64,000 nt of DNA from Candidatus Omnitrophota bacterium (lineage in GTDB: Bacteria > Omnitrophota > Gorgyraeia > Zapsychrales > Zapsychraceae): assembly GCA_023247445.1 (NCBI GenBank), contig JAHFGL010000004.1:1520-65519 (forward strand), written 5' to 3'. Positions 3,787 through 63,140 of the stretch are shown here, one piece after another; position 1 is the first letter of the stretch; every line of letters starts with the position of its first letter. The notes under the pieces were generated by a model, which had not been told where the DNA came from, did no database searches, and saw only the letters and a program-made list of their open reading frames with translations. A program made the position numbers and the translations under genes.

Positions 3787-3810
3787 AATTCTTTAGAACT
3801 TATCTTAAGA

Positions 3811-10248: not shown

Positions 10249-10249
10249 T

Positions 10250-11560: not shown

Positions 11561-11597
11561 ATCTTAATAACAAGTTAAATAGATGGAGAAAGAAGGC

Positions 11598-37249: not shown

Positions 37250-37318
37250 TATTATGTTTTATCTTTTAGCCATCGATACATTCTAGGAATATAAATTAAG
37301 AAAATATAAAGGTTAAAA

Positions 37319-38455: not shown

Positions 38456-38486
38456 TAGGAAAAATATTAGATTTTGGGTTTAAAAT

Positions 38487-38520
38487 AAAGCAGATTACTT
38501 AAATGTAATCTGCTTTATTG
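38487..38520 (+). terminator. rho-independent-like hairpin aaagcagattac-ttaaat-gtaatctgcttt
   Basis: 10-12 bp perfect stem. Near-identical hairpin recurs after paralog 4 (41129..41168). Confidence 0.55.
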
Positions 38521-38534
38521 GTTGTGTCCAACAG

Positions 38535-38560
38535 TGTCCTACCTTGTCATATTGACAACC
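38535..38560 (+). promoter_or_regulatory. second copy of conserved upstream motif tgtcctaccttgtcatattgacaacc (perfect palindrome TTGTCA-TAT-TGACAA over the -35 hexamer; -10-like TATCCT 17 bp downstream)
   Basis: Direct comparison with 36038..36064. Confidence 0.45.
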
Positions 38561-38729
38561 TTGTGTTCATAGTTTATCCTTTCACTAATTCATTCAAAGA
38601 GTCATAAATAAATTAGACAAATTGTTGGTGTTCTTAATCGACAATATCCGATGTTGTTATCTTGACAGTTTTTAGATAATATTTTATGCTTTGCCACATT
38701 TCAAAATTAGTATAAAGGGGCGAGAAATA

Positions 38730-39875: not shown

Positions 39876-39910
39876 TAAATTTAAAAATTTAGTCTTTGAT
39901 AAGTAATAAA

Positions 39911-39948
39911 AATAGTGGATTTCAAAAGAATCCACTATTTTTATTATT
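39911..39948 (+). terminator. hairpin atagtggatt-tcaaaaga-atccactat followed by a T-rich tract
   Basis: Read directly. Immediately downstream of the paralog 3 stop. Confidence 0.5.
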
Positions 39949-39979
39949 TCCTAAATTATTATTAAATAATACTAAAAAA

Positions 39980-45909: not shown

Positions 45910-45910
45910 T

Positions 45911-48900
45911 ATGATTGAGAAAATTATTGATGCCTGTGCTCGTCAGAAGTTTTTGGTCTTACTTTTTGTAACGGCCGCTATTGTGGCTTCGATATGGTCA
46001 GTCAAAAATATTCCACTGGATGCTATCCCTGATCTTTCCGACACCCAAGTGATCATTTATTCCAAATGGGATCGCAGTCCAGATATTATTGAAGATCAAG
46101 TTACCTATCCAATCATATCGTCCTTATTGGGAACTCCTGGCGTCAAAGCAATCCGCGGATTTTCTGATTTTGGATTCTCTTATGTTTATGTCATTTTTAA
46201 AGATGGCACAGATCCTTATTGGGCGCGAAGTCGTGTCTTAGAATATTTAAGTAAAATTTCCTCTCAGTTGCCCGAGGGCGTTAAGACAGAATTAGGTCCT
46301 GATGCCACGGGGGTGGGTTGGGTTTTGCAATATGCACTTGTGGACACTAGCGGTACGCATGATTTGGCACAGCTGCGTAGTTTTCAAGATTGGCATTTGC
46401 GTTATTGGTTGGGGTCGGTGCCCGGTGTTGCTGAAGTAGCTTCCCAAGGCGGCTTTGTCAAACAATATCAAATCACCGTCGACCCAAGAAAATTGCTAGC
46501 CTACAATATTCCTATCAATAGAGTCATCGAGTCCGTGCGTTTGGGTAATCAAGAAACCAGCGGTCGACTCGTTGAATTTACCGGCGCGGAATATATGATT
46601 CGCGGTCACGGCTACGCCAAGTCTATTGATGATTTAGAGCAGATCGTTCTGGGGGTGGATGCTCATGGCACACCGATTGTTATTAAAGATGTTGCTCATG
46701 TTGCTTTAGGAGGTGAAACACGGCGTGGAATTTTGGATTTAAATGGCCAGGGTGATGTTGTTGGCGGAACCATTGTAATGCGTCAGGGAGAGAATGCGTT
46801 AAGAGTTATTGAGGCTGTTAAAACCAAACTTAAGGAGATTGAACCTTCATTGCCGCCAGGCGTCAAGATCGATATCACCTATGATCGTTCTGATCTTATC
46901 TTACGCGCTATTGATCATCTTAAAAAGCAACTGATAGAAGAAATGATCATTGTCAGTTTAGTTATTCTAATTTTCTTATGGCATTTCCCGTCAGCATTTA
47001 TTCCGATTGTCACCATTCCGATTGCGGTCTTGATCGCTTTTATTCCTTTGCTCGGAATGAAATTAACATCGAATATCATGTCGTTGGCAGGCATTGCCAT
47101 ATCAATCGGGATTTTAGTTGATGGGGCGATTGTGCAAATGGAAAATGTTTATAAACGCCTGGAAGAATGGGAGGCCGGTGGTAGGCGAGAAGATCCAAAA
47201 GAAGTGGCGCTTAAAGCGATTAAGGAAGTTGCGCCATCGGTATTTTTTGCGCTACTGGTCATCGCTGTATCATTTTTTCCAATCTTTACACTTCTTGATC
47301 AGGAAGGACGGTTGTTTAAACCACTAGCCTGGTCAAAAACATTTGCCATGGCGGTCGCAGCGATTTTAGTTGTGACGCTTAATCCAGCGCTGCGCCTGAT
47401 GTTTGTGCGCACTAAACCTTTTACCAAAGGTCCTGGCTGGTTGAGGAGTTTAGGGAATACATTATTTATTGGCCGCTATTATCCCGAGGAGAAACATCCC
47501 ATAAGCCGGGTGTTATTTCGTGTGTATGAACCTATCTGTCGGTTTGTCCTTAATCACGCCAAAATGACAATTATCATTGCTTTGTTATTAATGGCCAGTG
47601 TGATTCCAATTCTTTTACCTCACGGAAATTTTAAGTTTAAGGGGATTTCTTTGCCACATACATTAGGATCGGAATTTATGCCGCCGTTATGGGAAGGGCA
47701 AATTTTATATATGCCTATCACTATGCCGGGAATTTCAGTAACGGAAGCCCAAAAGTTATTACAAAATCAGGACAAGATTCTTAAAAGTTTTCCAGAAGTG
47801 GATAAGGTTTTTGGCAAAGCCGGACGGATGGAAAGCTCAACGGATCCTGCGCCATTATCAATGATGGAAACGGTCGTGTTGCTCAAGCCGGAAAGCGAGT
47901 GGCGCATCGTTAATGGCCGTCCAATTACCCATGAACAACTGATTGAAGAAATGGATCAAACGCTAAGAATTCCCGGAACCAGCAATTCTTGGACGATGCC
48001 GATTAAAAATCGTATTGACATGCTTTCAACGGGAATTCGCACACCCATTGGAATTAAAATTTTAGGTGCTGATTTTAAAGAAATTGATAGAATGGGCATG
48101 GCCTTAGAGGCGTTATTAAAAAATGTCCCCGGCACGCGCAGTGTTTTTGCTGAACGCACGCAGGGCGGATATTTTTTAGACTTTGATCTTAAACGCCAAG
48201 AGCTTGCACGTTACGGATTGTCCGTTGCCGATGCCGAAATGTCGATTCAATCGGCCATTGGTGGCGAAAATATTGCGACGACTGTTGAGGGTCGGGAAAG
48301 ATATAGCATCAATGTCCGTTATCCGCGTGAATTTCGCGATAATGTGGATCAATTAAGCCGTGTCCTTGTGGCAACACCATCGGGCGCGCAAATTGCTCTG
48401 GGACAAATCGCAAATATTGTTGTGCGCACGGGACCGGCGATGATCCGCAATGAAAATGGGATGCTTGCTGGTTATGTGTATGTTGATGTGGCCGGCCGTG
48501 ACATTGGAACCTATGTTGAAGAGGCAAAGAAGAAAGTCGCCACTGAGTTTAAACTGTCGCAAGGATACACGTTAATCTGGAGCGGACAGTATGAGAATAT
48601 GCTTCGTGTCCGTGAGCGACTTAAGATTGTTGTCCCACTGACACTTTTTATTATTGTTCTTTTACTTTATTTCAACACAAAATCATGGGTTAAAACTGGT
48701 ATTGTTTTATTAGCCGTGCCGTTTTCGTTAATCGGTGCATTTTGGTTATTATGGATACTCAAATACAATCTATCGATTGCAGTTTGGGTTGGGATGATTG
48801 CCTTGATGGGACTCGACGCGGAAACGGGTGTCTTGATGTTACTTTTTCTTGATATTGCTTATAAAGATGCCGTGCGTAAAAATGCCATGAAAACGATCGG

Positions 48901-49159
48901 TGATTTGCGCGAGGCCATCATTGTTGGAGCGGTTAGGCGCGTACGACCCAAAATGATGACGGTGGCAGCCGCTTTACTAGGCTTATTGCCGATTATGTTT
49001 TCGCATGGAGCCGGAGCCGATGTTATGAAACGGATCGCCGCGCCCATGGTGGGAGGTTTAACGACGTCGTTTATTTTGGAATTGCTTGTTTACCCGGCTG
49101 TCTATTTTCTTTGGAAATCGCATTTTGAATTAAAGAATAATAAACCTCAAATAACATAA
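45911..49159 (+). CDS. heavy-metal-efflux (HME) RND inner membrane pump, CusA/CzcA family
   Basis: 1082 aa, 12 TM helices. Two large periplasmic loops. Typical AcrB/CzcA N-terminus MIEKIIDACARQKFLVLL. Confidence 0.85.
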   Translation: MIEKIIDACARQKFLVLLFVTAAIVASIWSVKNIPLDAIPDLSDTQVIIYSKWDRSPDIIEDQVTYPIISSLLGTPGVKAIRGFSDFGFSYVYVIFKDGTDPYWARSRVLEYLSKISSQLPEGVKTELGPDATGVGWVLQYALVDTSGTHDLAQLRSFQDWHLRYWLGSVPGVAEVASQGGFVKQYQITVDPRKLLAYNIPINRVIESVRLGNQETSGRLVEFTGAEYMIRGHGYAKSIDDLEQIVLGVDAHGTPIVIKDVAHVALGGETRRGILDLNGQGDVVGGTIVMRQGENALRVIEAVKTKLKEIEPSLPPGVKIDITYDRSDLILRAIDHLKKQLIEEMIIVSLVILIFLWHFPSAFIPIVTIPIAVLIAFIPLLGMKLTSNIMSLAGIAISIGILVDGAIVQMENVYKRLEEWEAGGRREDPKEVALKAIKEVAPSVFFALLVIAVSFFPIFTLLDQEGRLFKPLAWSKTFAMAVAAILVVTLNPALRLMFVRTKPFTKGPGWLRSLGNTLFIGRYYPEEKHPISRVLFRVYEPICRFVLNHAKMTIIIALLLMASVIPILLPHGNFKFKGISLPHTLGSEFMPPLWEGQILYMPITMPGISVTEAQKLLQNQDKILKSFPEVDKVFGKAGRMESSTDPAPLSMMETVVLLKPESEWRIVNGRPITHEQLIEEMDQTLRIPGTSNSWTMPIKNRIDMLSTGIRTPIGIKILGADFKEIDRMGMALEALLKNVPGTRSVFAERTQGGYFLDFDLKRQELARYGLSVADAEMSIQSAIGGENIATTVEGRERYSINVRYPREFRDNVDQLSRVLVATPSGAQIALGQIANIVVRTGPAMIRNENGMLAGYVYVDVAGRDIGTYVEEAKKKVATEFKLSQGYTLIWSGQYENMLRVRERLKIVVPLTLFIIVLLLYFNTKSWVKTGIVLLAVPFSLIGAFWLLWILKYNLSIAVWVGMIALMGLDAETGVLMLLFLDIAYKDAVRKNAMKTIGDLREAIIVGAVRRVRPKMMTVAAALLGLLPIMFSHGAGADVMKRIAAPMVGGLTTSFILELLVYPAVYFLWKSHFELKNNKPQIT

Positions 49160-49179
49160 AGCAAAAAGGAGGAAGTACA

Positions 49180-49524
49180 ATGAAAACAAAATTATTTGTT
49201 TTAATCTTGATGGCCGTCTTTTTAAGGCTCGATGGGGCTATCGCGAGCAGTGAAGAAATTGCCGTCGCGGTCGTAGAAAAAGACAAGGCTGCTGTGGAAG
49301 TTGTCGATGTCGGTAATAAAATTTGTCCAATTTCCGGGGAGAAAGTCGGCGAAATGGGTGAGATTGTAAAGCATGAATATAATGGCAAGTCGTATAATTT
49401 ATGCTGTAGTATGTGTCTTAGAGATTTTAAGAATGATCCAGAAAAGTTTAGCAGAATAGCCGAAGATGAAGTTGCAAAAGAAGCGGTGGTAGACAATTCT
49501 GAAAAAGTTCAAGAACAAAAATAA
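49180..49524 (+). CDS. secreted YHS-like metal-binding domain protein
   Basis: Signal peptide. CPISGEKV...YNGKSYNLCCSMCLRDFKNDPEKF resembles a YHS/TRASH-type Cys motif. Confidence 0.55.
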   Translation: MKTKLFVLILMAVFLRLDGAIASSEEIAVAVVEKDKAAVEVVDVGNKICPISGEKVGEMGEIVKHEYNGKSYNLCCSMCLRDFKNDPEKFSRIAEDEVAKEAVVDNSEKVQEQK

Positions 49525-49538
49525 AATCAAATTACTTT

Positions 49539-49667
49539 AAATATTGAATTGTTTCTGGAGGGACGTCGGTCCAACGAGCCGCATGGATTCAGGCGAGGAA
49601 GGACCGCCGAGCGAAGCTTGCCTCGCAGGGGCAAGCGAGCGATCCCGGAAGAAACAATTCAATATTT
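49539..49667. repeat. GC-rich approx 95-bp island flanked by perfect 17-bp inverted repeat aaatattgaattgtttc / gaaacaattcaatattt (candidate structured RNA or MITE)
   Basis: Inverted repeat read directly. Inner segment is far more GC-rich than its AT-rich flanks and contains a hairpin gcttgcc/ggcaagc. Confidence 0.5.
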
Positions 49668-49699
49668 TTAGATTAATTTTAGAAACTGGAAAAAAGTTT

Positions 49700-50866
49700 A
49701 TGCAAGATCCCATCTGCGGGATGAGTGTTAGTGAAAAGAGTTCTCTACGATTAACCGTCAGCGGCCAAACCTATTATTTCTGCAGCGAACATTGTCTGAA
49801 GAAGTTTGCTAGCCAAAATAAAGTTGATGCTGATATGGTTTCCTCATGCGCGGGTTCTACGAGCCTTCCATGGTACAAAAATAAAACTTTACTGACCGCG
49901 GCCATTCTTCTTTTATTGTATGTATCATCGTATTTCCTTCCAATCTTGGGGCCTTTTAAGCAATCGCTAACGATGTATTTTCAAAAAGCCTGGTGGGCGA
50001 TTGCCTTAGGACTTATTCTCGGTGGGATCATTGATTATCTTGTTCCTCGCGAATACATTTCATATGTCTTGGCCCGCCGGAAGAAACGCACGATTGTCTA
50101 CTCGGTTATGTTGGGCTTTTTGATGAGCGTTTGTAATCACGGCATTCTAGCTATTTCGATGGAGCTTTATAAAAAGGGGGCTTCCACCTCAGCGGTCATT
50201 GCTTTTTTGCTCGCAAGTCCCTGGGCAAATTTGCCAATAACATTAATGCTCATCGGTTTTTTCGGATTCCTTAAAGCTATTTATATTATCGTAGTTGCCA
50301 TTATTATCGCTTTAGTCACAGGATATATTTATCAATTTCTCGAGAGGCGTCAGCTTGTTGAAACTAATTCACAAAGCCTGATGTTCGAGGAAGATTTTTC
50401 TATTATGAAAGATATTCAAAAAAGATGGAGTGATGTGGAATTTTCTTCAGATTATTTAAAAGAAACGGCACACGGCATTTATGGGGGAGTGGTTGCGTTG
50501 AGCAATATGGTTCTCTGGTGGATTTTAATTGGCATTGGTATTGCAAGTTTTGCCGGTGCATATATCCCGCCGCATTTTTTTCATCAATATATGGGACCAA
50601 CGGTTTTGGGACTTGTTGTGACACTTATTATGGCCACTATTTTGGAAGTCTGCTCGGAAGGCACCGCGCCCTTGGCCTTTGAAATATTTAGGCAAACCGG
50701 CGCCTTGGGAAATAGTTTGGTGTTTCTGATGGCCGGAGTCGCGACCGACTATACAGAAATTGGTCTTATTTGGCACAACATTGGCCGTCGGGCGGCACTA
50801 TGGTTGCCGGCAATTACTGTTCCTCAAATAATACTTTTTGGTATATTGGCTAATATTATTTTTTAA
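49700..50866 (+). CDS. YHS-domain-fused permease (PF03773-like predicted permease)
   Basis: N-terminal MQDPICGMSVSEKSSLRLTVSGQTYYFCSEHCLKKF is a canonical YHS. Then approx 8 TM helices. The upstream 156 nt of the long ORF is treated as noncoding. Confidence 0.6.
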   Translation: MQDPICGMSVSEKSSLRLTVSGQTYYFCSEHCLKKFASQNKVDADMVSSCAGSTSLPWYKNKTLLTAAILLLLYVSSYFLPILGPFKQSLTMYFQKAWWAIALGLILGGIIDYLVPREYISYVLARRKKRTIVYSVMLGFLMSVCNHGILAISMELYKKGASTSAVIAFLLASPWANLPITLMLIGFFGFLKAIYIIVVAIIIALVTGYIYQFLERRQLVETNSQSLMFEEDFSIMKDIQKRWSDVEFSSDYLKETAHGIYGGVVALSNMVLWWILIGIGIASFAGAYIPPHFFHQYMGPTVLGLVVTLIMATILEVCSEGTAPLAFEIFRQTGALGNSLVFLMAGVATDYTEIGLIWHNIGRRAALWLPAITVPQIILFGILANIIF

Positions 50867-50869: not shown

Positions 50870-51559
50870 GTGTATAATGACGTTATGAAGAAATTTATTA
50901 AATTCATTTTACAGTTACTTTTTTTTGCCCTTCTTACCTTCATCGGTTATAAAGCCTTTTGGCAATATCAACATGAAAATCGGATTCTCAAACAAGTGAT
51001 TGAGCGACTACAAGCCGATTCACGGGTAGCAGAGGTTTTAGTGACCGGCGTTAATTATGATGAAAAATCGGCTAAGACCTTTACAACGATTAAATTTTTA
51101 GAATACGACATCGATAACAAAGCGCTTGAACCAAAATATTTTACTTTCTCCGGAAATATTATCCAATTCCAGTCGCTGGTCATCCGCTTTGATGATATTT
51201 ATGTCCGTAACGCTGATCGTCTGCGCGGCAAAAGCGCGTTTATTTTTTGGAAAGTTTTTATGCTCGACGGCCGAAACACACAGGAATATGAGATTAATAA
51301 AATGTATGACACGCCCCAAGGATACAAATTAAACGATATAAAGGACCCATTTGAAGATCGTTTATGGAAAGATTTCTGGATTTACGCGCTTAACCCCGAT
51401 CGCGCCAAACGTAGTGGCGTTAAAAATGCCCAGATTGAAGCTCCCGGAACGATGTTTGTTCCTGGACATCTCTACACACTTAAAATTGAACATGATGGTG
51501 GACTGCGAATTGATTCATTGCCGCTTCCCGTCATTTTGCATGGCGAAAAAATTCCCTAA
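50870..51559 (+). CDS. hypothetical protein with N-terminal TM anchor
   Basis: No recognisable domain. Confidence 0.35.
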   Translation: MYNDVMKKFIKFILQLLFFALLTFIGYKAFWQYQHENRILKQVIERLQADSRVAEVLVTGVNYDEKSAKTFTTIKFLEYDIDNKALEPKYFTFSGNIIQFQSLVIRFDDIYVRNADRLRGKSAFIFWKVFMLDGRNTQEYEINKMYDTPQGYKLNDIKDPFEDRLWKDFWIYALNPDRAKRSGVKNAQIEAPGTMFVPGHLYTLKIEHDGGLRIDSLPLPVILHGEKIP

Positions 51560-51634
51560 ATCCTTGCTGGATTTATTTACTAAAGAGCTATAATGCCATC
51601 AAAGAATATTAATCCTTTTAAAGGGGAGGACATC

Positions 51635-52258
51635 ATGATGTTAACAAGAAATTTATTCGTTATTATATTTGTTTGTCTTTTAATCAGTCCTGCTTTTTCT
51701 GAAGATGGGGTTTTGGTTTCTGGACCATCAAGAACCCAGTCGTTCTCTCCATCCCAAACTCTTTCAACGAATGAACAGATTGTCCAACAAACGATCATGG
51801 CCGCTTATCAGCAAGCAGTGGCAAACGTCGTCCAGAAACAGATTGTTCAACAAAAGTTAAATATCGCCCAAGGAGTTGTTCAGGAGGTAATTGGCCAAAC
51901 CGTTCTTCAAGGATTAAAAGAACAGGCGGTTACGCAGGCTCTTAGGCAAGCATATGCGCAAGGGATAAGCCAAGTTGTTAATCAGCGCCAACAGCAAATT
52001 ACGCAAGAAGTCATTAAACGTAATATTGCCGCTAGTGTCGAACAGGCGCTTAGAAAATCGATGATGGAACAAGTGTATAAACAGGTTGCCCAAAAAGTTA
52101 TTGAGCAACGAATCCTTCAAGAACAAGCCGTGCTTCAACAACAGCTTCAGCAGCGTGTAGGAGCGGCGATTATGCAGCAGCGACAGCAAGCCATGCAGCA
52201 GGCTCTTGCCAAGCAATATGAGCAGGCTTTACTACAAACCCTCGCCAGTCAACGCTAG
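51635..52258 (+). CDS. secreted glutamine-rich repetitive protein (coiled-coil-like Q/V/A repeats)
   Basis: Signal peptide, then degenerate repeats (Q.V.Q..V.Q). Strong RBS aaggggagga. Confidence 0.45.
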   Translation: MMLTRNLFVIIFVCLLISPAFSEDGVLVSGPSRTQSFSPSQTLSTNEQIVQQTIMAAYQQAVANVVQKQIVQQKLNIAQGVVQEVIGQTVLQGLKEQAVTQALRQAYAQGISQVVNQRQQQITQEVIKRNIAASVEQALRKSMMEQVYKQVAQKVIEQRILQEQAVLQQQLQQRVGAAIMQQRQQAMQQALAKQYEQALLQTLASQR

Positions 52259-52312: not shown

Positions 52313-54229
52313 ATGAGAATCCATTCTCAGCCTTTTTATAAGTCGATTGATATTTTAAATTCGGCTTTGATTCTTGTGTGCATAACTTATGCGCTTGGGA
52401 TCGTTTCTGACATTTCCTTCCTTCAGGATTTAGGAATCCTATCGTTGCTACTGCTTATTCCTTTGAAGGTATTTCTTTATTGTGGCATTTATGGAATATT
52501 AGTAGAAATAGCAAGTAAAGAGGAGGTATTGGTAAAGTTTGATCATTGGAAAGATTATGTTCGGCGATTTTGGAAAATTTACAGTATTTTGCTGGTTGTT
52601 CCTTTTTTTATTCATCTGCCATTAACCTTACTCGTCCCGTATTTTAAAAGCTTGCCTATCACTGTTGTGGTTTTTCAGTTTAATATTATTGCCTTATTTA
52701 TTTTAGCTAAGACAATCATTGCTAAGAAATATATCCAGCCTCTGGGCCTATCCGCACGGCCGATTGTCATTGATCTAAAAATAGCGGGAACGATTCTTGG
52801 GATCTACGCAATCGATATGGCCGTATTTTATTTGCCACAATTTATTGACGGCGGGCCACTTTATTTACCGAATATTTTAGGGTTTGTATCGGAATTAATC
52901 CATTACATGGAGTTTCTAATATTTGTCGTCGTTATTTTGGATGGGTATCCTGAAATTGAGAAACATCTTACTCCCGAGCGAGAATTATATATTATCAGCC
53001 CACCGAATGCCGGAGTTCGCGATAGTTTGGGATCCATTATTTATAAGCCGAATCCGGCGGTTTTTGTTGTTTTAAAGGCTTTGACTCCCAAAAATTATCG
53101 GATTCGACTATTTAATCGTGTGCCCTGGCAAAATAGGTTTTATAAAAGTAATGTTTTGGTCGCGATCACCTGCTTTACTGGGAATAGTTTTGAGGCTTAC
53201 AAAATTGCGAAAGAATTTAAAGAGAGCGGGGCAACCGTCATTATGGGCGGCCCGCATGTGACGTATTTACCGGATGAGGCTTTAGGATATTGCGATAGTG
53301 TTGTTATCGGAGAGGCGGAGGGGGTTTGGAAACAATTGATTACGGATTACGAAAATAATTCTTTGAAGAAGAAATATGTCGGTGCCGCCGAGGATAAATA
53401 CTATGAAGAGGTGCATCAAGAATTGCTTATGTCATCGCCAGAGGTGATCAGAGATTTTCTTGAGACGACACGTGGATGTAAATTTAAATGTCATTTTTGC
53501 ACTATTCCTGGATTAAGTAGCGGCCGAACACGGACAAAACCAACATTCCAGCTTGTTGAGTTGATTGAAAAGATTAAACATAAATATAATTCGGTATCTT
53601 TTATTGATAACAATATTTACAGTGATCCTGCTTACGCGAAAGAATTGTTTACTGCTTTAAAACCGCTTAAGGTTAAATGGCGAACGGCGTGTACCATTGA
53701 TATCGTTAAGAATGAAGAATTGCTCAAACTTGCCAAAGACAGCGGATGCGAGTTGCTTTTATTTGGTTACGAGATTTTTGGTAGTTCATCTGAAAAAGGT
53801 CAAGGAGGAAAATTCGCTTTAGCTGAAAAATATATTCAATTAACGGATGCCGTCAAGAAGATGGGGATCCGAGTTAAGGGGAGTTTCGTCTTTGGGTGGG
53901 ATACGGATCGGCTCCGAGACTTAATTACGTTATGGAAATTTTGTTTGAAGATCCGTCCTGAGATAACCGTCATCAATTTATTGACACCAATCCCTGGGTC
54001 CCATACGTATGACGATATGCTCAAAGAAAATTCTATTACAAATCTTAATTGGCGCAGTTACTCTTTCCATAATTTTGTTTTTAAACATAAGCATATTAAT
54101 CGACGTGTGTTGGATTTATTGTTTCCTATTCTTCGTCCATTTTTTATGTTTACGACTTCGCGTATGGGCTTTTCTGCGCTTTTCTTGTTAGTCGTGGTTA
54201 TAAGTTTGTCAGTTATGTTTAAACTCTAA
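52313..54229 (+). CDS. membrane-anchored B12-binding-domain radical SAM protein, paralog 1 (6 N-terminal TM helices + B12-binding-like + radical SAM CxxxCxxC + C-terminal TM)
   Basis: TTRGCKFKCHFCTIPGLS. B12-binding-like VAITCFTGNSFEAYKIAKEFKESGATVIMGGPHV. Hydrophobic N-terminal 220 aa. Confidence 0.75.
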   Translation: MRIHSQPFYKSIDILNSALILVCITYALGIVSDISFLQDLGILSLLLLIPLKVFLYCGIYGILVEIASKEEVLVKFDHWKDYVRRFWKIYSILLVVPFFIHLPLTLLVPYFKSLPITVVVFQFNIIALFILAKTIIAKKYIQPLGLSARPIVIDLKIAGTILGIYAIDMAVFYLPQFIDGGPLYLPNILGFVSELIHYMEFLIFVVVILDGYPEIEKHLTPERELYIISPPNAGVRDSLGSIIYKPNPAVFVVLKALTPKNYRIRLFNRVPWQNRFYKSNVLVAITCFTGNSFEAYKIAKEFKESGATVIMGGPHVTYLPDEALGYCDSVVIGEAEGVWKQLITDYENNSLKKKYVGAAEDKYYEEVHQELLMSSPEVIRDFLETTRGCKFKCHFCTIPGLSSGRTRTKPTFQLVELIEKIKHKYNSVSFIDNNIYSDPAYAKELFTALKPLKVKWRTACTIDIVKNEELLKLAKDSGCELLLFGYEIFGSSSEKGQGGKFALAEKYIQLTDAVKKMGIRVKGSFVFGWDTDRLRDLITLWKFCLKIRPEITVINLLTPIPGSHTYDDMLKENSITNLNWRSYSFHNFVFKHKHINRRVLDLLFPILRPFFMFTTSRMGFSALFLLVVVISLSVMFKL

Positions 54230-54283
54230 ACGTTAGGTTTAATCTCCGTTCGGCTTGAATCATTGAATTAAAGTAATGTCATT

Positions 54284-56206
54284 ATGATGTCTAAAGACAG
54301 CCCTTTAAAAACATCCTATGAAGTCTTGGCCTCGGTGCCGAGTCTTGTTCTTGTCACATACATGCTAGGATTGTTCTATGACACATCGTTTATCCAGGAT
54401 TTAGGATGGTCCGCCCTACTTCTTTTTATTTTCCTAAAAATAATTCTCTATAGCGGCATCTATGGTGTGTTGGTTGAGCTCGCCAGCGGACAGGAATTTC
54501 TAATTGACTTTAAGCAGTTTCGCCAGAACATCCGGGCCTTTTGGAAAATCTATTCCTTGTTATTGGTTGTCCCGTTTTTTATCCATTTTCCTCTAACGCT
54601 TTTATCAAACTATTTTAAAGCCTTGCCGGTCACCGTTGTTTTTACCCACTTTAATATCATCGCGCTATATATTTTAGCCAACTATATTATCGAGAAGAAA
54701 TACGTTAAACAACTGGGATTACCGAGAAGAAAAATTCCTCTGAGTATTTTTAATATTGTCGTGATTCTGGCTTTATACTTCATCGACTTAGGCGTTTTTT
54801 ATTTGCCGCAGTTTGTGATGACAGAAAAATATTACTTACCTAACTTTCTAGGGTTTCTTTCAGAGATCATTCATTATTTTCAGTTCTTGTATTTCTCGGT
54901 TTTAATCTTGAACTCCTATCCTGAAATTCAAAAGCATTTTACCCCGCAACGAGAACTCTTTTTGATCAATCCTTGGTGTGCGGGTATGTTGCGCAGTTTG
55001 GGATATGCCTTGTTTAGCCGCGGCTATCCACCGGCATTTGTTGTCCTTAAGGCCATGACACCAAAAAATTATAAAGTTCGCGAATTTAATCAAGTCATTT
55101 GGCGCAATCGCTATTACCGTGGGCATCCTTTGGTCGCCATTACATCTTATACAATGAGTAGCTTTGAAGCCTACAAGATTGCGAAGGGATATAAACAGCG
55201 AGGCGCAACTGTTGTTATGGGTGGGCCGCATGTGACATACTTACCTAAGGAGGCCTTGGAATATTGCGATAGTGTTGTTGTTGGAGAAGCCGAGGGAGTG
55301 TGGAAAGATGTCATTAAAGATTACGAAAATCATACCTTAAAGAAGGAATATACAGGCAGTGGCACCAAAGAATATCATGACCAAGTTTATCAAGAGCTTC
55401 TTAATTCTTCGCCCGATGTGATCAAAGACTTTTTAGAGACCACCCGGGGGTGTAAGTTTAAATGCCATTTTTGTACGATTCCTGGATTAAGCGGAGGCAA
55501 TGTGCGCAATAAACCAGTTTTTCAGCTGGTTGAATTGATTAGGAAAGTTAAGAAAAAATATAATCAAGTTACATTTATTGATAACAACATTTATAATGAT
55601 CCCGCGTATGCCAGGGAACTTTTCAAGGCGCTTAAACCTCTCAATATTAAGTGGCGTACGGCGTGTACCATTGATATTGCAAAGAATGAAGAGACCTTAA
55701 AGTTGGCAAAGGAAAGTGGCTGTGTAGGATTATTGGTTGGCTATGAGATCTCAGGAAATTCGCCTGATAGTCAGAATTTGCGCGGGAAGTTTTCGATGGC
55801 TGAACAATATCGGCGCTATACGCAAACGATCCAACAGCTTGGCATTGCCATTCGCGCTAATTTTATTTTTGGTTTTGAATCGGATCGGTTAAAAGATATT
55901 TGGCGGCTTTGGCGATACTGCTTATCGTTAGGAGCGAATTCAGCCGGGTTGGGTATTTTGACGCCGCTTCCGGGGTCACAGCTTTATCACGATATGCTTA
56001 TCGAGAATCGATTAACGAACCTCAACTGGTGTCGATATTCGATGTTTCAGTTGGTATTTAAACATAAATATTTAAACGATGCGGTTGTCTCAAAGGTTTT
56101 TCCTGTTGTTTCTGTTTTTTATTTATTAACTACGTCTAAGACAGGGCGGATTTTATTTTCACTCTTAATCATTTTGGCGTTATGCACAGTTTTATTTAAA
56201 CTTTAG
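54284..56206 (+). CDS. membrane-anchored B12-binding-domain radical SAM protein, paralog 2
   Basis: TTRGCKFKCHFCTIPGLSGG. Same conserved blocks as paralog 1: YPEIQKHFTPQRELFLINP, GPHVTYLPKEALEYCDSVVVGEAEGVW. Confidence 0.75.
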   Translation: MMSKDSPLKTSYEVLASVPSLVLVTYMLGLFYDTSFIQDLGWSALLLFIFLKIILYSGIYGVLVELASGQEFLIDFKQFRQNIRAFWKIYSLLLVVPFFIHFPLTLLSNYFKALPVTVVFTHFNIIALYILANYIIEKKYVKQLGLPRRKIPLSIFNIVVILALYFIDLGVFYLPQFVMTEKYYLPNFLGFLSEIIHYFQFLYFSVLILNSYPEIQKHFTPQRELFLINPWCAGMLRSLGYALFSRGYPPAFVVLKAMTPKNYKVREFNQVIWRNRYYRGHPLVAITSYTMSSFEAYKIAKGYKQRGATVVMGGPHVTYLPKEALEYCDSVVVGEAEGVWKDVIKDYENHTLKKEYTGSGTKEYHDQVYQELLNSSPDVIKDFLETTRGCKFKCHFCTIPGLSGGNVRNKPVFQLVELIRKVKKKYNQVTFIDNNIYNDPAYARELFKALKPLNIKWRTACTIDIAKNEETLKLAKESGCVGLLVGYEISGNSPDSQNLRGKFSMAEQYRRYTQTIQQLGIAIRANFIFGFESDRLKDIWRLWRYCLSLGANSAGLGILTPLPGSQLYHDMLIENRLTNLNWCRYSMFQLVFKHKYLNDAVVSKVFPVVSVFYLLTTSKTGRILFSLLIILALCTVLFKL

Positions 56207-56214
56207 GAACACTT

Positions 56215-58152
56215 ATGGATTTGAAGAAAGAAAAAGAAGAAATATCTTTATTAAGCAGGGCAGGGGGAATTCTTAATTCTCTGGCTTCGATGGTTTTTCT
56301 GACGTATATGTTGGATGTTCTTTTCGATAGCAATTTTGTTCAGAATCTGGGCATATTCGGTCTGTTGATTTTTATCCCGCTTAAGATTCTTCTTTTTACC
56401 GCCATGTTCGTTACCTTAATTGAGATAGCCAGTGGGGAAGAGATTCTTTTTCAATTTGCTCGCTTTAAAAGTAATGTGACTAAATTTTGGAAAATTTATG
56501 CCTTAGCGTTATGTTTGCCGCTAGCCATTTATTTTATTGTGAAGTATGTCTTTAGGTTGCCTCAAAACTTATCCATTAGTGTTTTAATGTTTCATTTAAA
56601 TATTGTTATTTTCTTTTTGGTTTCTTACGGCATTATTAATGCAAAATACATAAAGCCAGGGGCGCTAAAGAGAAGAAGCATCGTTTTAAGCTTGAAAAGT
56701 GTCGGTATTATTCTTGCCCTTTATGGATTGGATCTGGCCATTTTTTATTTACCACAGTATGTTGATACCTCAAGATTTTATCTGCCCAATCTGTTAGGAT
56801 TTCTTGCTCGATATTTAGATTTCTTTATCTTTACGTATTTATCTCTGATTATTTTTAAGCAATATCCTGAAATTGAGAAACGATTTACTTTTGATCGTGA
56901 ACTTTACTTAATCAATCCCTATCCTTATGGCGGAGATCTTCTGACGGGATTTTCCTATTCTGCGTGGCGGTGGCATCCACCTATTTTTGTTGTTTTAAGG
57001 GCATTAACGCCAAAGCATTATAAAGTCACAGAATTTAATCAACGTATTTGGGCCAATCGATATTATAAGAAAAATGCTTTAGTGGCGATTACCTGTTACA
57101 CCTCGAACTCTCCGGAGGCTTATAGGATTGCGAAAGAGTTTAAACGACGTGGTGCGACTGTCATCATGGGTGGGCCGCACATTATGTGTGTACCTCAGGA
57201 AGCCATCGATTATTGTGATAGTGTCGTTGTTGGAGATGTGGAAGGGGTCTGGCGTGAGATCATTCGCGATTATGAAAATGGATCACTTAAGAAAGAATAT
57301 TCTGGAGAATCAAAGAAAGAAGATCATGAATTTGTTCAGCAAGAACTGATGACCTCGACTCCAGAAGTGGTTAAAGACTTTTTGGAACCAACGCGAGGAT
57401 GTAAATTTAAGTGTCATTTTTGTGCGATTCCAGGCATTGTGGATAATATTAAAAGATTACCTGTTGAAGAATTCTTGTCGCTGATTAAACGGATTAAACA
57501 TAGATATAATCGTGATCTTTACTTTATTGATAGCAATATTTATTCGGATCCCGCGTATTCTAAAGAATTATTTCAAGCTTTGAAACCGATGAATGTTACC
57601 TGGCAGAGCGCGGCGACCATTGACATCGCCAAGAATCAGGAAACACTTAAATTAGCTCGAGAAAGTGGTTGTAAATTATTGTTATGCGGTTATGAAGTTC
57701 CTGCCGGATCGCTGGAAACAAAAGTTGATGGCAAATTAACGATGGCGGATCGATACATTGACTATACGCGAATTATCCAAAAAACAGGAATTAAAATAAA
57801 AGGGACGTTTATGTTTGGTTGGGAGTCAGATAGTTACAAAAGTTTATTTGAGCTATGGAAGTTTTGCTTTAAACTTAGCCCACAAATAACCGTTATGTCG
57901 ATTTTGACACCCATCCCTGGATCCAAACTTTATGTTGATATGCTTAAAAGCAATCGTTTAACGAATTTAAATTGGCGGGCGTATGCCTTTTATAGTTTGG
58001 TTTATAAACATCCCAATCTAGATAATTTTATATTTCCAAAATTATTTATCTTTATCCGATATGTGTTTTTCTTTACGACATCTACGTTCGGTCGAAAAGT
58101 TTTTATTTTTGTATTAATTGGGGTTGCGCTACTTCTTTTAACGAGGTTATAA
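56215..58152 (+). CDS. membrane-anchored B12-binding-domain radical SAM protein, paralog 3
   Basis: PTRGCKFKCHFCAIPGIV. Blocks YPEIEKRFTFDRELYLINP, GPHIMCVPQEAIDYCDSVVVGDVEGVW. Confidence 0.75.
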   Translation: MDLKKEKEEISLLSRAGGILNSLASMVFLTYMLDVLFDSNFVQNLGIFGLLIFIPLKILLFTAMFVTLIEIASGEEILFQFARFKSNVTKFWKIYALALCLPLAIYFIVKYVFRLPQNLSISVLMFHLNIVIFFLVSYGIINAKYIKPGALKRRSIVLSLKSVGIILALYGLDLAIFYLPQYVDTSRFYLPNLLGFLARYLDFFIFTYLSLIIFKQYPEIEKRFTFDRELYLINPYPYGGDLLTGFSYSAWRWHPPIFVVLRALTPKHYKVTEFNQRIWANRYYKKNALVAITCYTSNSPEAYRIAKEFKRRGATVIMGGPHIMCVPQEAIDYCDSVVVGDVEGVWREIIRDYENGSLKKEYSGESKKEDHEFVQQELMTSTPEVVKDFLEPTRGCKFKCHFCAIPGIVDNIKRLPVEEFLSLIKRIKHRYNRDLYFIDSNIYSDPAYSKELFQALKPMNVTWQSAATIDIAKNQETLKLARESGCKLLLCGYEVPAGSLETKVDGKLTMADRYIDYTRIIQKTGIKIKGTFMFGWESDSYKSLFELWKFCFKLSPQITVMSILTPIPGSKLYVDMLKSNRLTNLNWRAYAFYSLVYKHPNLDNFIFPKLFIFIRYVFFFTTSTFGRKVFIFVLIGVALLLLTRL

Positions 58153-58155
58153 AAA

Positions 58156-58764
58156 TTATTTAAGATTTTTGTAGATGAAGGGGATCTTGAGAATAATTTG
58201 AATAACAAAATAGCTGGCGATCGTGGTTGCAAAAATCTGCCATACTTTGAGGGGATAAATAAAGCAGGTAAAGATAAACACGCACATAATTGTTTTTCGC
58301 GAAATATTATCAAGATGATAAATGGTATCAACCAGTGATGGGATGTTGTACTTCTTGCTGTAAATTTCACAAAGTTGATAGAGAGTTTTCTGGCAGAGGT
58401 CTTCTAGTTGGAAGTCTTTTTTGAGTAGTTCCGTACTAATTTCAACAACCAACTTCTTTTGATTTTGATTCAGTTTAAATAGCGGATAAATAAATAGTAG
58501 CCCTGCCCATAAATAAACATACTGTTTTGATACGATAATCAATACGAGTAGTCCAACAATGAGGACATTAAGAAGCAATTGCAAACAGAGAATTTTTCTT
58601 AAACGGGGATAAAGAGTGGCGGCGTGATTAACATCTGTAAGATGTTCAGAAATGGCCGGACGCGTAACCAGGAAATTAAACCATCGAAAGACTTGTTCGT
58701 CAGTATCGATTGAGCTAGCAATAGCTTCCAAACTACTAACTGCTTTATGAAAAGGGATGGCCAT
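58156..58764 (-). CDS. hypothetical integral membrane protein
   Basis: 202 aa, 3-4 TM helices. Convergent with the radical SAM cluster. No recognisable domain. Confidence 0.4.
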   Translation of the reverse strand: MAIPFHKAVSSLEAIASSIDTDEQVFRWFNFLVTRPAISEHLTDVNHAATLYPRLRKILCLQLLLNVLIVGLLVLIIVSKQYVYLWAGLLFIYPLFKLNQNQKKLVVEISTELLKKDFQLEDLCQKTLYQLCEIYSKKYNIPSLVDTIYHLDNISRKTIMCVFIFTCFIYPLKVWQIFATTIASYFVIQIILKIPFIYKNLK

Positions 58765-58868: not shown

Positions 58869-61136
58869 ATGATGATGCGAAATATCAAAAGGGATAATAC
58901 AAAGCTAATTTGTGATATTGGAGAATTGGGAGGACTCTTTAGAGATTCAACGAGTCTTGAGACCTTCTTGCAGCGCATCGTTGAGATGATTGCCGATCAT
59001 ATGAATTCTGATGTTTGTTCGATCTATCTTTATTATTTGGATACGCAGGAATTGATTTTAAGCGCAACGCATGGCTTAAATAAAGATTTTATCGGAAAGC
59101 TTAAATTAAAGTTGGGAGAGGGGTTGACCGGTGTCGCTTTAAAAGAGCTACGGCCAATTTCGGAGCGCCATGCCAGTAAAAATTCCAGTTTTAGGTATTT
59201 CCCCGGCTTGGGTGAAGAGAAGTATGAATCTTTTCTCGCTGTTCCCATTATCCGCGGAACAACTAAAATTGGGACGATGGTCATCCAAAATACGCAGAAG
59301 GATTATTTTAGCGATGAGGATACCATCGCCTTGCGTGCGGTGACCTCTCAGCTGGCCAACACGATCGAAATGGCGAGGCTGATCATGTCCTTTGAAACGC
59401 AACATGATCTTCAAAAAGAAACACAGCCAACCGAACCATTAAAATTTATTCAAGGGAAAGTTGGTTCAGAAGGGTTTGCCTTTGCGCAGGCCACGATTCT
59501 TAAGAATGAAAAAAATTTGAGACTTTATATTCAAAATAAGATTGTACAAAGTTACACCTTAGAAGATTTTGAAAAGGCCGTTGCCTTAACAGAAAAACAG
59601 CTGGAAGAATTTCAGCGGCAGATTGAAGAAAAATTAGCCGACGTGGCTTCGCTTATTTTTTCCGCGCAGATTTTGATGCTTAAAGATAAAGGTTTTATTG
59701 AGGCGATTGTTCATCTGATCGAAGATGGCGAGGATCCGGTTTCTGCGACGATCACCGTTGTTGATCATTATGTCCGAAAGTTTGAAAGCCTTCCGAATCT
59801 TTATCTGCGTGAAAAAAGTCAAGATATTCGAGACATTGGCAAACGATTGCTGGACAATTTGGTTGGGCATGGTCAACAAGCCTCTGAGTATGAGGATCAC
59901 ATTATCGTTTCCGAAGAATTGTTGCCATCGGATGTCCTTAAATTTTCTTCACAGAAGGTTAGGGGAATTATTCTTTTACGCGGCGGAACCACATCACATG
60001 TTTCCATCTTAGCTCAATCATTGTCGATTCCACTTATCATTGCCGATCATCTGGATCTTTTATCGTTACCGGCCCAAACAAAAATTTTGATGGATGCCGA
60101 ACAAGGAAATATTTATATTAATCCTGCCCAAGAGATTACTAATTCGTTTAAGGGTAAGGAGGATCTACGAAAAGAAGTTGAGCGTCTTAAAAGTTCAATG
60201 TCCGCGACCACAGAGACTAGCGATGGAACGCGGGTGTATTTGTTGGCTAACATTAATCTTTTAGGTGATGTTAAAAACGCACGGGAATATAAGGCCGAAG
60301 GGGTTGGACTTTACCGAACAGAATTTCCTTTTATTATCCGTAGTGATTTTCCATCAGAGGAAGAGCAGTATGTGATTTATAAAAAGCTTATTGATGGAAT
60401 TCCAGATAAAGAAATTACTCTTCGAACACTTGATATCGGTGGTGACAAAGTTTTATCTTATTTCCAACATCACATTAAAGAGAACAATCCCTTTTTGGGA
60501 ATGCGTTCGATCCGTTTTTCGTTGCAGCACCTTGATATTTTTTCTCATCAAATCCGGGCTATTTTACGCGCCGGGGCAGACGCTAACATTCGTATTATGT
60601 TTCCTATGATTTCATCGTTGGATGAGTTTTTGGATGCCAGAAAGGTTGTCATTTCTTGTATCAACGATTTAAAAATGGCTGAGGTTCCTTGCAATGAGAA
60701 TCCAAAGATTGGTTTAATGGTTGAATTGCCATCGGTGGTTGAAATTATTGAGGATTTGGCGCAGGAGGCGGATTTTTTTAGTATTGGTACCAATGATTTT
60801 ATTCAATATATGCTGGCGGTTGATCGCACTAATGAAAAGGTGTCGAATTTGTATCTGCCTCATCATCCATCGATTCTAAGGTCTTTAAAGAAAATTGTTG
60901 ATGCTGCTAATAAGTTTAAAAAAGATGTCTCCATTTGCGGTGATATGGCTCAAGAGGAAAAATATTTGGAATATTTTCTTGGAATTGGGCTAAGAAAATT
61001 TAGTATGACGCCGGCGGGGTTACCCAAGATTCAAACAGCCCTACGTCAAATTAAAATGGCGACGGCTAAGAAAAATACAGAAGCCATTTTATCAAAGAAT
61101 ACAGTTAATGATATCGCCCGCATGATGAAGATATGA
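58869..61136 (+). CDS. ptsP: GAF-domain phosphoenolpyruvate-protein phosphotransferase (Enzyme I-Ntr)
   Basis: N-terminal GAF. PEP-utilising phospho-His site GGTTSHVSILAQSLSIPLI. Signature 2 SIGTNDFIQYMLAVDR. Confidence 0.85.
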   Translation: MMMRNIKRDNTKLICDIGELGGLFRDSTSLETFLQRIVEMIADHMNSDVCSIYLYYLDTQELILSATHGLNKDFIGKLKLKLGEGLTGVALKELRPISERHASKNSSFRYFPGLGEEKYESFLAVPIIRGTTKIGTMVIQNTQKDYFSDEDTIALRAVTSQLANTIEMARLIMSFETQHDLQKETQPTEPLKFIQGKVGSEGFAFAQATILKNEKNLRLYIQNKIVQSYTLEDFEKAVALTEKQLEEFQRQIEEKLADVASLIFSAQILMLKDKGFIEAIVHLIEDGEDPVSATITVVDHYVRKFESLPNLYLREKSQDIRDIGKRLLDNLVGHGQQASEYEDHIIVSEELLPSDVLKFSSQKVRGIILLRGGTTSHVSILAQSLSIPLIIADHLDLLSLPAQTKILMDAEQGNIYINPAQEITNSFKGKEDLRKEVERLKSSMSATTETSDGTRVYLLANINLLGDVKNAREYKAEGVGLYRTEFPFIIRSDFPSEEEQYVIYKKLIDGIPDKEITLRTLDIGGDKVLSYFQHHIKENNPFLGMRSIRFSLQHLDIFSHQIRAILRAGADANIRIMFPMISSLDEFLDARKVVISCINDLKMAEVPCNENPKIGLMVELPSVVEIIEDLAQEADFFSIGTNDFIQYMLAVDRTNEKVSNLYLPHHPSILRSLKKIVDAANKFKKDVSICGDMAQEEKYLEYFLGIGLRKFSMTPAGLPKIQTALRQIKMATAKKNTEAILSKNTVNDIARMMKI

Positions 61137-61927: not shown

Positions 61928-62326
61928 ATGATAAAAAATAATACCAAACCAACCCGCATACTGCTCGTTGACGATGATCCTGTTCAAGTTAAACTTCTCC
62001 AAACGAGATTAAAGGAAAATGGTTTTGAGGTCTTAACCGCTCATGATGCCGCGGTTGGATTACAACTTGCGATTGATCAAACTCCCGAAATTGTCATCCT
62101 TGATGTGATGATGCCGATTATTAATGGTTATAATTTCTGCCGACTTGTCAAAACAGAAGTTAAGGTAAAAGATATTTCAGTTATCCTATTAACTTCCCGT
62201 GATAAGTTAGAGGACATTCGAATTGGTCTTGAGATGGGTGCTGATGCTTACTTGGTTAAACCCGTGAATATTGAAGAACTTCTTAGAGCGATTAAGGTCG
62301 TTGGCTCCAGTAATCATAAACATTAA
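61928..62326 (+). CDS. single-domain response regulator (REC)
   Basis: ILLVDDDPVQVKLL...ILDVMMPIINGYNF...YLVKP. Confidence 0.8.
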   Translation: MIKNNTKPTRILLVDDDPVQVKLLQTRLKENGFEVLTAHDAAVGLQLAIDQTPEIVILDVMMPIINGYNFCRLVKTEVKVKDISVILLTSRDKLEDIRIGLEMGADAYLVKPVNIEELLRAIKVVGSSNHKH

Positions 62327-62336
62327 TTCCCCACTT

Positions 62337-63140
62337 ATGTTTGCCATCAAAATTCTTGAAAATATAGGTTTTACCGTTAAAGAGTGGTGTGTTGTTACGG
62401 TTGAATTTCTTCAACTGCTTTTAGAAACCCTTTATTGGATTTTTCTTGGACCCTTTCGAGCTAAGCCCATCAACGTTCCCACCCTTTTCGATCAAATGGT
62501 TTTTATGGGGATTCAATCGATTGCCATCGTCTTTTTTGTTAATCTTTTTACAGGTGTTGTTTTGGCCATGCAATCGGCCCATCAACTTGCTCAGATGGGG
62601 GCGACAATTTATGTCGCCAGTTTAGTCACGATCTCGATTTGTCGTGAACTAGGACCAGTCTTAACGGCTCTGGTTATCGCCGGCCGAATTGGCGCCGCGA
62701 TTACCGCTGAAGTGGGATCGATGAAAGTCAACGAGCAGATTGAGGCGCTCGACACGATGGCCATTAGCCCTGTTCGTTATCTAGTTGTTCCTAAATTTTT
62801 GTCACTCCTTATTATGCTGCCGTGCCTGACGGTGTTTGGCGATATGGCGGGGATTTTGGGAGGTTACTTGATTGGCGTTTTTAGTTTAGATATTAATTCC
62901 GGATTATACATTCAAACGGCTTTAAAATATTTAACGCTTAAAGATATTTATACAGGACTATCGAAACCCTTTGTTTTTGCTATTATTATTTCACTCGTAG
63001 GCGCTTATCAGGGATTAAAGACAAAAGGCGGCGCGGTTGGCGTTGGAAAGGCAACAACGATCAGTGTGGTCACGAGTTTTATTTTAATTATTCTGGCTGA
63101 TTGTGTGGTTACGGGAATTTTTTATTTTATGGCGATGTAA
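62337..63140 (+). CDS. mlaE: MlaE-family ABC transporter permease (phospholipid/lipid-asymmetry system)
   Basis: Approx 267 aa, five TM. MlaE-like conserved region ELGPVLTALVIAGRIGAAITAEVGSMKVNEQIEALDTMAISPVRYLVVP. Confidence 0.75.
   Translation: MFAIKILENIGFTVKEWCVVTVEFLQLLLETLYWIFLGPFRAKPINVPTLFDQMVFMGIQSIAIVFFVNLFTGVVLAMQSAHQLAQMGATIYVASLVTISICRELGPVLTALVIAGRIGAAITAEVGSMKVNEQIEALDTMAISPVRYLVVPKFLSLLIMLPCLTVFGDMAGILGGYLIGVFSLDINSGLYIQTALKYLTLKDIYTGLSKPFVFAIIISLVGAYQGLKTKGGAVGVGKATTISVVTSFILIILADCVVTGIFYFMAM

Follow-up and report, generated by a model that had tools for sequence, protein, structure and literature searches.

We analyzed a 64,000-nucleotide (nt) stretch of DNA from a Candidatus Omnitrophota bacterium (contig JAHFGL010000004.1 of assembly GCA_023247445.1, positions 1,520 to 65,519), hereafter the window. 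Three tandem genes in the window encode B12-type radical S-adenosylmethionine (SAM) enzymes that carry transmembrane (TM) helices of their own, and a convergent fourth gene encodes a small membrane protein, which we call the partner. The genes, and the domains of the first enzyme, are arranged as follows (window coordinates; aa, amino acids; ORF, open reading frame).

52313..54229, + strand: paralog 1, a TM-B12-radical SAM enzyme of 638 aa (ORF, Pfam PF02310 and PF04055, AlphaFold2)
52313..52948, + strand: paralog 1, N-terminal 6-TM domain, aa 1-212 (hydropathy and AlphaFold2 helices)
52982..53392, + strand: paralog 1, Rossmann-type B12-binding domain, aa 224-360
53450..54082, + strand: paralog 1, radical SAM partial TIM barrel, aa 380-590 (PF04055, 43.3 bits)
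53477..53500, + strand: paralog 1, CxxxCxxC [4Fe-4S] motif (C389, C393, and C396)
54101..54223, + strand: paralog 1, C-terminal helices, aa 597-637 (seventh TM helix and TTSxxG motif)
54284..56206, + strand: paralog 2, a TM-B12-radical SAM enzyme of 640 aa, with its TM domain at 54284-54919
56215..58152, + strand: paralog 3, a TM-B12-radical SAM enzyme of 645 aa that adjoins the partner gene, with its TM domain at 56215-56870
58156..58764, - strand: partner, a four-TM protein of 202 aa, convergent with the enzyme genes and 3 nt from the paralog 3 stop codon

The enzyme genes are separated by 54 and 8 nt, and the other two products are 58% and 48% identical to paralog 1. A preliminary description, made from the letters of this stretch, had reported three tandem paralogs of ~640 aa with shared motifs. 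The ORFs and all of the quoted motifs were recovered; FYLPQ, YLPN.LGF, YPEI.K, GATV.MGGPH, and GCKFKCHFC are invariant in all three paralogs. Radical_SAM (PF04055) scores 43.3, 40.2, and 35.8 bits in the three proteins, each above the gathering cutoff of 29.5, and B12-binding (PF02310) scores 33.8 and 35.0 bits in paralogs 1 and 2 against a cutoff of 32.1, with paralog 3 (29.1 bits) just under it. By a Kyte-Doolittle scan, each paralog has seven hydrophobic segments, six in the N-terminal part and one at the C-terminus. More than 950 full-length homologs exist (630-650 aa, 44-58% identity), so the three-gene feature is not a product of chance.

An AlphaFold2 model of paralog 1, built from 108 homologs, has a predicted local distance difference test score (pLDDT) of 91.4 and a predicted template-modeling score (pTM) of 0.89. 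Its N-terminal helices span residues 7-32, 42-67, 76-107, 116-141, 155-177, and 185-210, and are followed by a short amphipathic helix, a five-strand Rossmann domain, a partial TIM barrel, and two C-terminal helices (597-615 and 617-637), the final one hydrophobic. As the pTM of 0.89 applies to the whole chain, the placement of the TM domain relative to the barrel is confident. Pfam, hydropathy, AlphaFold2, and fold searches thus agree with the architecture first proposed from the sequence, and each paralog is an integral-membrane class-B-type radical SAM enzyme with a 6-TM domain, a Rossmann domain, a barrel, and a C-terminal TM helix. The N-terminus and loops 68-88 and 139-152 are rich in basic residues, and the stretch after helix 6 is rich in acidic ones. 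This charge distribution, together with the topology of a natural fusion protein (below), is consistent with an N-in enzyme with cytoplasmic catalytic domains, as an iron-sulfur (Fe-S)/SAM enzyme requires.

The CxxxCxxC motif is 100% conserved in 171 family members and reads GCKFKCHFC in all three paralogs. Invariant barrel residues are D432, W456, D463, G485, E487, K500, G528, P559, P561, and W580, and cysteines conserved outside the motif are C287 (87%), C327, and C479. The CxxxCxxC motif, the PF04055 scores, and a barrel that aligns with solved enzymes place the proteins in the radical SAM superfamily, and a PF02310 Rossmann domain ahead of the radical SAM core places them in class B. We define the present family by three features: a match to the 6-TM profile, a TM helix at the C-terminus, and a four-TM partner of ~200 aa that is either adjacent and convergent or fused. 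The window shows all three. No NCBIfam equivalog cutoff is reached: scores are 74-91 versus 577.6 for HpnJ (the best), 45-62 versus 481 for BchE, 39-66 versus 360 for TIGR04072, 27-43 versus 650 for HpnR, at most 45 versus 500 for AprD4, and 27-47 versus 360 for TIGR04014, and the PhpK, ApyD, and MgmA models likewise fall short. Two further groups, methylthiotransferases (MiaB/RimO/MtaB) and Tes/GDGT-MAS-type synthases, are excluded because the auxiliary-cluster cysteines are lacking. Methylthiotransferases are recognized by an N-terminal UPF0004 domain, with its three such cysteines, and a C-terminal TRAM domain; the window enzymes have a single CxxxCxxC and a B12-type domain, and no Tes structure is among the top fold matches.

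Two motifs of the Rossmann domain bear on the cofactor: an invariant GG (G312-G313) after strand 4 and a T-C-x-T-x-N loop (T286/T289/N291) after strand 3. In OxsB, TsrM, and TokK, the latter loop is positioned beneath the cobalt (PMC13331322). On sequence grounds, these conserved motifs favor a functional cobalamin site. Alternatively, the Rossmann domain might not bind cobalamin, as reported for AprD4, and the radical reaction on the membrane substrate might be something other than methylation (for example, dehydration, rearrangement, desaturation, or C-C coupling). AprD4 (6fd2), named a diol dehydratase and not a methylase, is the best match in a PDB sequence search, whose matches, MgmA among them, cover the barrel only; it is also the top match in a fold search, with MgmA second. 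B12 genes are not found nearby, nor is a cobalamin riboswitch, either in the window or in seven related loci, and B12-type radical SAM enzymes are known to perform cyclizations and ring contractions as well (PMC13459092). We nevertheless regard this alternative as improbable.

A dedicated membrane partner

The preliminary description had mentioned the membrane protein encoded downstream of the array merely as a flanking hypothetical. It is instead a conserved adjacent partner. We scanned 10 related loci (numbered L001 and upward) and 80 loci from a metagenome search with hidden Markov models (HMMs). Of 20 further independent loci whose downstream sequence could be read, 19 have a convergent partner gene within -31 to +51 nt of the 3' end of the enzyme gene. 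The arrangement is the same in the window and in a syntenic Joint Genome Institute (JGI) contig, the latter by gene calls only, and every related locus first examined has a convergent copy, 26-57% identical, directly behind the enzyme. Hence, the partner is a dedicated component with near-obligate gene adjacency and the sole conserved neighbor of the enzyme. With the partner included, the feature reaches 58764.

The partner family has 77 members, all ~200 aa long and all labeled "hypothetical"; the partner has no Pfam match and no specific fold match. In its AlphaFold2 model (pLDDT 86.8), the partner is all-helical and has two long hairpins; we read it as four TM helices and a compact helical region formed by the N-terminus and the central loop. 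The invariant residues (D22, W28, F29, Y135, L144, V145, and D152) lie within the N-terminal and central helical segments. The enzyme/partner junctions (window 58150-58160; L001-L025) are always convergent, with 3' ends that abut or overlap. With gaps of -31 to +51 nt, terminators do not fit between the genes, and their 3' transcripts probably overlap in antisense, which is odd given that elsewhere the two products are fused. Promoter and terminator scans gave nothing above shuffled expectation.

The fusions came to light in a search of 1.84 billion representative proteins with a profile of the 6-TM domain. The 98 matches are confined to the TM-B12-radical SAM family and include all three window paralogs. 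Nearly all are 620-657 aa long, and shorter ones resemble fragments. Two are longer (P0211 and P0227; 845 and 865 aa), both from one Omnitrophota metagenome-assembled genome (MAG). Their ~205 extra N-terminal residues are homologous to the full-length partner (hhalign probability 97.8 and 97.7; E-value 7e-13 and 2e-12), and the domain order is partner, 6-TM, B12, and radical SAM. The two paralogous fusion proteins are only 32% identical over their whole length; therefore, the fusion is old and not an assembly artifact. No separate partner gene was found beside the fusion genes in the 22.6-kb stretch of L010 that was examined. A four-TM protein fused ahead of an N-in 6-TM domain must have both of its own termini in the cytoplasm, and this puts the conserved segments of the partner on the same side as the catalytic domains.

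To the fusion we can add a signal of co-variation. In a mirror-tree comparison of 20 enzyme-partner pairs, partner distances correlate with TM-domain distances (r 0.52), also when controlled for the soluble domain (partial r 0.40, Mantel p ~2e-4), whereas the reverse partial correlation with the soluble domain is not significant (r 0.14, p 0.13). We take this as modest evidence for a TM-TM interaction between partner and enzyme. As both are fast-evolving membrane proteins, the signal may come in part from shared rate or composition effects.

Might the partner be the substrate rather than a subunit? Under this explanation, the enzymes would modify the conserved cytoplasmic helical region of the partner, for example by C-methylation, with different paralogs acting on different residues. 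The strict gene pairing and the invariant residues in cytoplasmic segments would fit such a role, as would the lack of conserved small-molecule pathway genes nearby. MgmA, the second-best fold match, is a protein glutamine C-methylase, and MgmA and Mmp10 both modify methyl-coenzyme M reductase. The stable N-terminal fusion in two old paralogs, however, is typical of subunits and not of substrates. The conserved regions are predicted to be well-packed helices (pLDDT ~90), with no exposed loop, and the partner co-varies with the TM domain, not with the catalytic domain. Furthermore, a substrate role for the partner leaves the conserved 6-TM domain without a task. We therefore judge this explanation unlikely.

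The 6-TM domain itself has no consistent Pfam match. With a mean identity of 23% across the family, versus 50-56% for the soluble domains, it is the fastest-evolving part of the enzyme. Few of its intramembrane residues are conserved. Conservation is found instead at the cytoplasmic helix ends (G58, G61, E65, S68-G-E-E, N82, W87, K139, Y140, F201, Y212, and P213), and K52 is a conserved residue in mid-membrane. Several observations support a functional membrane module rather than a plain anchor: the domain occurs only fused to the enzyme, its cytoplasmic rim and K52 are conserved, its position relative to the barrel is confidently modeled, and a sister family (below) appears to be attached to the membrane by C-terminal hydrophobic helices alone.

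Paralogs and proposed function

The number of enzyme genes varies from one (L002, L003, L006, and L008) through two (L001, L005, and L010) and three (the window and L009) to four in the syntenic JGI contig. In a neighbor-joining tree of 171 members, paralog 1 groups with P0004 and P0006, paralog 2 with P0003, P0005, and P0011, and paralog 3 with P0080 and P0162. As the window paralogs group with proteins of other genomes, the duplications predate speciation. P0080 and a partner homolog, P0123, are probably on the same contig, both being recorded with a longest contig of 5110 nt. Named members of the enzyme family come from Candidatus Omnitrophota/Omnitrophica, except for one MAG labeled Planctomycetales, and those partner homologs that carry a source name, which are few, are all from Omnitrophota. 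Existing labels of the homologs read only "radical SAM protein", "B12-binding domain-containing radical SAM protein", or "YgiQ family".

The three genes are mosaic. For the soluble domains, the closest relatives lie in other genomes (78%, 68%, and 67%): that of paralog 1 is 78% identical to P0004, the first gene of the syntenic four-copy array, that of paralog 2 is closest to P0003, P0005, and P0011 (66-68%), and that of paralog 3 to P0162 and P0080 (66-67%). The TM domains are mutually nearest in the whole family (55%, 41%, and 38%), the closest relative of the paralog 2 TM domain being that of paralog 1 (55%). Recent gene conversion among the three copies was rejected, with third-codon-position identity near saturation everywhere; any 5' exchange between copies must therefore be old. 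The likeness of the TM domains reflects either such an old exchange between tandem copies or co-adaptation to a single shared partner. This is not what was first suggested, namely that divergent N-terminal domains signal specialization of the copies; the TM domain is fast-evolving throughout the family, and within it those of the window are each other's closest relatives. All three paralogs do keep the family-invariant residues. As they are also old and have orthologs in other genomes, a sequential or regiospecific action of the paralogs is compatible with the sequence data.

We propose that enzyme and partner form a two-component, Omnitrophota-specific integral-membrane radical SAM system that modifies a membrane-embedded lipophilic substrate, a proposal that we hold to be evenly balanced between right and wrong. 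The partner and the 6-TM domain would form one ten-helix membrane module, and this module would present a hydrophobic substrate, embedded in the membrane at the inner leaflet, to the cytoplasmic active site. Candidate substrates are membrane-lipid chains (alkyl or acyl), prenyl-quinones, and polyprenyl compounds. A 5'-deoxyadenosyl radical, probably together with methylcobalamin, would functionalize an unactivated carbon. Methylation would be the most likely reaction, with cyclization or C-C coupling also conceivable. The paralogs may act on different positions or on different substrates, with one partner serving them all.

The gene neighborhoods offer weak hints of such a substrate. One locus, L010, has quinone and lipid genes directly adjacent to the system: at 2359-12598, genes for a MenG/UbiE-like methyltransferase, MenA (1,4-dihydroxy-2-naphthoate polyprenyltransferase), and a nucleotidyltransferase (NTP-transferase) fused to a YegS-type lipid kinase are interleaved with the two fusion genes. 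It is the sole locus of this kind. Elsewhere, L002 has an AsmA-like gene, L009 has MlaEFD, the window has MlaE, and L006 has LuxC, an acyl-activating enzyme, and SCP2.

Several points weigh against the proposal. First, lipid- or quinone-related neighbors vary by locus, and across 21 loci no gene of a lipid or quinone pathway recurs beside the system; clustering of the neighboring ORFs of these loci gave no recurrent family other than enzyme and partner, shadow ORFs, and heterogeneous response regulators. Second, one enzyme locus, L017, has no partner within the 770 nt available downstream. Third, the substrate may be a protein, as MgmA, the second-best fold match, methylates one. The missing cobalamin riboswitch and the caveat on the mirror-tree signal, both given above, point the same way.

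The varied neighborhoods also fit another explanation, in which the membrane module only localizes or couples the enzyme, and the substrate is no bilayer lipid but a soluble or exported molecule (such as a peptide, an envelope precursor, or a cofactor) that would be modified at the membrane, perhaps while being handed over to export. Weak NCBIfam similarity to methylases of ribosomally synthesized and post-translationally modified peptides and of phosphonates (ApyD and PhpK) points in this direction, as does the small number of conserved intramembrane residues in the TM domain. Yet neither a precursor-peptide-like gene, nor a transporter, nor a protease is conserved beside the system, and the secreted glutamine-rich protein encoded upstream of the array is present only in the closest syntenic relative. 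As an anchor, ten extra TM helices are not parsimonious when the sister family manages with its C-terminal helices alone. We give this explanation little chance. The proposal of a membrane-embedded substrate can also be drawn further: the system might be a new intramembrane lipid-tailoring machine in which the partner and the 6-TM domain take the alkyl chain of an ether or membrane-spanning lipid, or a prenyl-quinone, out of the inner leaflet, with paralogs adding a methyl group or ring at different carbons. In so specific a form, we consider the proposal a long shot.

Other genes around the array

Of the genes flanking the array, several were considered as parts of the system and rejected. 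The glutamine-rich protein (221 aa, 51593-52258), which begins with a signal- or anchor-like segment and is rich in QQ/Q-x-x-Q repeats, and a protein of 229 aa (50870-51559) are shared only with the closest syntenic relative. Likewise, ptsP, a GDSL lipase, and CusBA are not conserved neighbors, being found in the closest syntenic relative only or nowhere. The glutamine-rich protein and ptsP, named in the preliminary description as flanking the cluster, thus drop out as neighbors of note across the 21 loci. A response regulator is not a robust partner either: genes with a receiver (REC) domain are present in 9 of the 21 loci, with varying architecture, distance, and orientation. A stand-alone receiver-domain protein does occur near the system in the window (61928-63140), L009 (11571-14330), and L017 (1429-1806). 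The window copy, upstream of MlaE, and the L009 copy, upstream of MlaEFD, are 55% identical; the L017 copy immediately precedes the enzyme gene. In both L005 and L009, the last enzyme copy is followed by genes for a Toast_rack_N protein and a rhomboid protease.

No Rfam elements or tRNA genes were found in the 64-kb window. In seven related loci, Rfam models matched only tRNAs, one 6S RNA gene (L008 10814-10966, ~240 nt past the partner gene), and one c-di-GMP-I riboswitch (L003 1652-1734; 36.1 bits, barely over its gathering score).

Further upstream in the window, a metal-efflux and -handling block (44635-50866) encodes a CusB-like membrane fusion protein, a CusA-like resistance-nodulation-division pump (1082 aa), a small YHS protein, and a YHS-ArsP-type permease fusion; it lies immediately upstream of the radical SAM array and is syntenic with the closest relative (JGI contig, 19780 nt). 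At 36122-41098 are four tandem paralogous genes (375-400 aa) with weak ice-binding-like or bactofilin-like beta-helix matches; three of them (37319-41098) carry C-terminal PEP-CTERM sorting signals, so that the group looks like a secreted or surface array. A Na+/H+ exchanger fused to a phosphotransferase system (PTS) EIIA-2 domain (2068-3786) and a GAF-domain Enzyme I of the PtsP type (58869-61136) suggest a regulatory (nitrogen-type) PTS that would control ion transport. The remainder of the window consists of ordinary chromosomal genes. Guanine-plus-cytosine (GC) content is ~40%, almost every gene is on the + strand, and GC skew is positive throughout.

Significance and comparison with known systems

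B12-type radical SAM enzymes are among the largest and least-charted groups of enzymes. An integral-membrane member with a dedicated membrane subunit would surprise specialists: neither a transmembrane B12-radical SAM enzyme nor the present Omnitrophota family turned up in full-text literature searches, and the word "transmembrane" is absent from a 2026 review of lipid-modifying radical SAM enzymes (PMC13459092). The family definition is clear and testable, namely the enzyme, its convergent or fused partner, one to four paralogs per locus, and named members that are almost all from Omnitrophota. Whatever the substrate, the conserved gene pair and its natural fusion are a concrete experimental target. 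If the substrate is a membrane lipid or quinone, the genes are candidate biosynthetic markers for modified lipids of an abundant, uncultured, anaerobic phylum, with a bearing on lipid biomarkers and palaeoclimate proxies, and the module would be a new structural way for radical chemistry to reach a substrate within the bilayer. Heavily methylated ("overly branched") lipids are seen in anoxic waters and sediments, and their producers and enzymes are currently unknown (PMC11868695). Were the lipid-tailoring version true, Omnitrophota would be a source of heavily methylated tetraether or ether lipids, or of methylated quinones.

Among solved class B enzymes, the closest folds are AprD4 (6fd2), MgmA (9ccb), CysS (9n1b), TsrM (6wte), TokK (7kdx), and OxsB (5ul3). 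In both of two fold searches, only ~340-440 of 638 residues, which we take to be the soluble part of the enzyme, align to these targets of 417-731 residues, at 11-18% identity. None of these enzymes has been described with TM helices or a membrane partner, and the C-terminal helical domain that is usual in class B is replaced in the window enzymes by hydrophobic membrane helices.

The sister family, the nearest relatives that lack the 6-TM domain, consists of B12-radical SAM proteins of 415-460 aa, 30-39% identical across the soluble part, that keep the C-terminal hydrophobic helices but have no 6-TM domain, no partner gene, and no conserved neighbors, and that reach no NCBIfam equivalog cutoff. 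From their sequences, they look tail-anchored by one or two of these helices. They occur in L026-L036 (for example L031, 9941-11233, and L027, 9995-11338), L040, and L012 (1355-2617); the L012 contig carries a full-length member of the present family as well. The sister-family neighborhoods were rejected as a clue to function, as they have only signaling genes (FIST, histidine kinase, REC, and GGDEF) in common, and these at no more than three loci.

Tes/GDGT-MAS and Mss, synthases of membrane-spanning lipids, are also radical SAM enzymes that act on bilayer lipids. Tes combines three [4Fe-4S] clusters with a rubredoxin-like domain and lacks a B12 domain (PMC13459092), unlike the present family with its one CxxxCxxC and B12-type domain, and Tes is absent from the top 50 or 60 fold matches. 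Mss homologs are reported for 15 of 267 Omnitrophota MAGs (PMC11868695).

Closer in kind are GrsA/GrsB (GDGT ring synthases), Gmm/Hgm (GMGT methylase), HpnP/HpnR (hopanoid methylases), HpnJ, and the ladderane enzyme TIGR04072, which belong to the same enzyme class and act on membrane lipids. With GrsA/GrsB and Gmm/Hgm the comparison is one of general architecture as given in the review (PMC13459092), no curated model of them being among the NCBIfam matches. Models of GrsA/B show a Rossmann domain, a barrel, and a C-terminal helix thought to bind the substrate, and lipid-modifying B12-radical SAM enzymes such as GrsA/B and Gmm are often encoded by stand-alone genes (PMC13459092). For no enzyme of this set is an integral 6-TM domain or a membrane partner of its own described. 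The differing regiospecificity of GrsA and GrsB, in turn, is a precedent for the tandem copies in the window.

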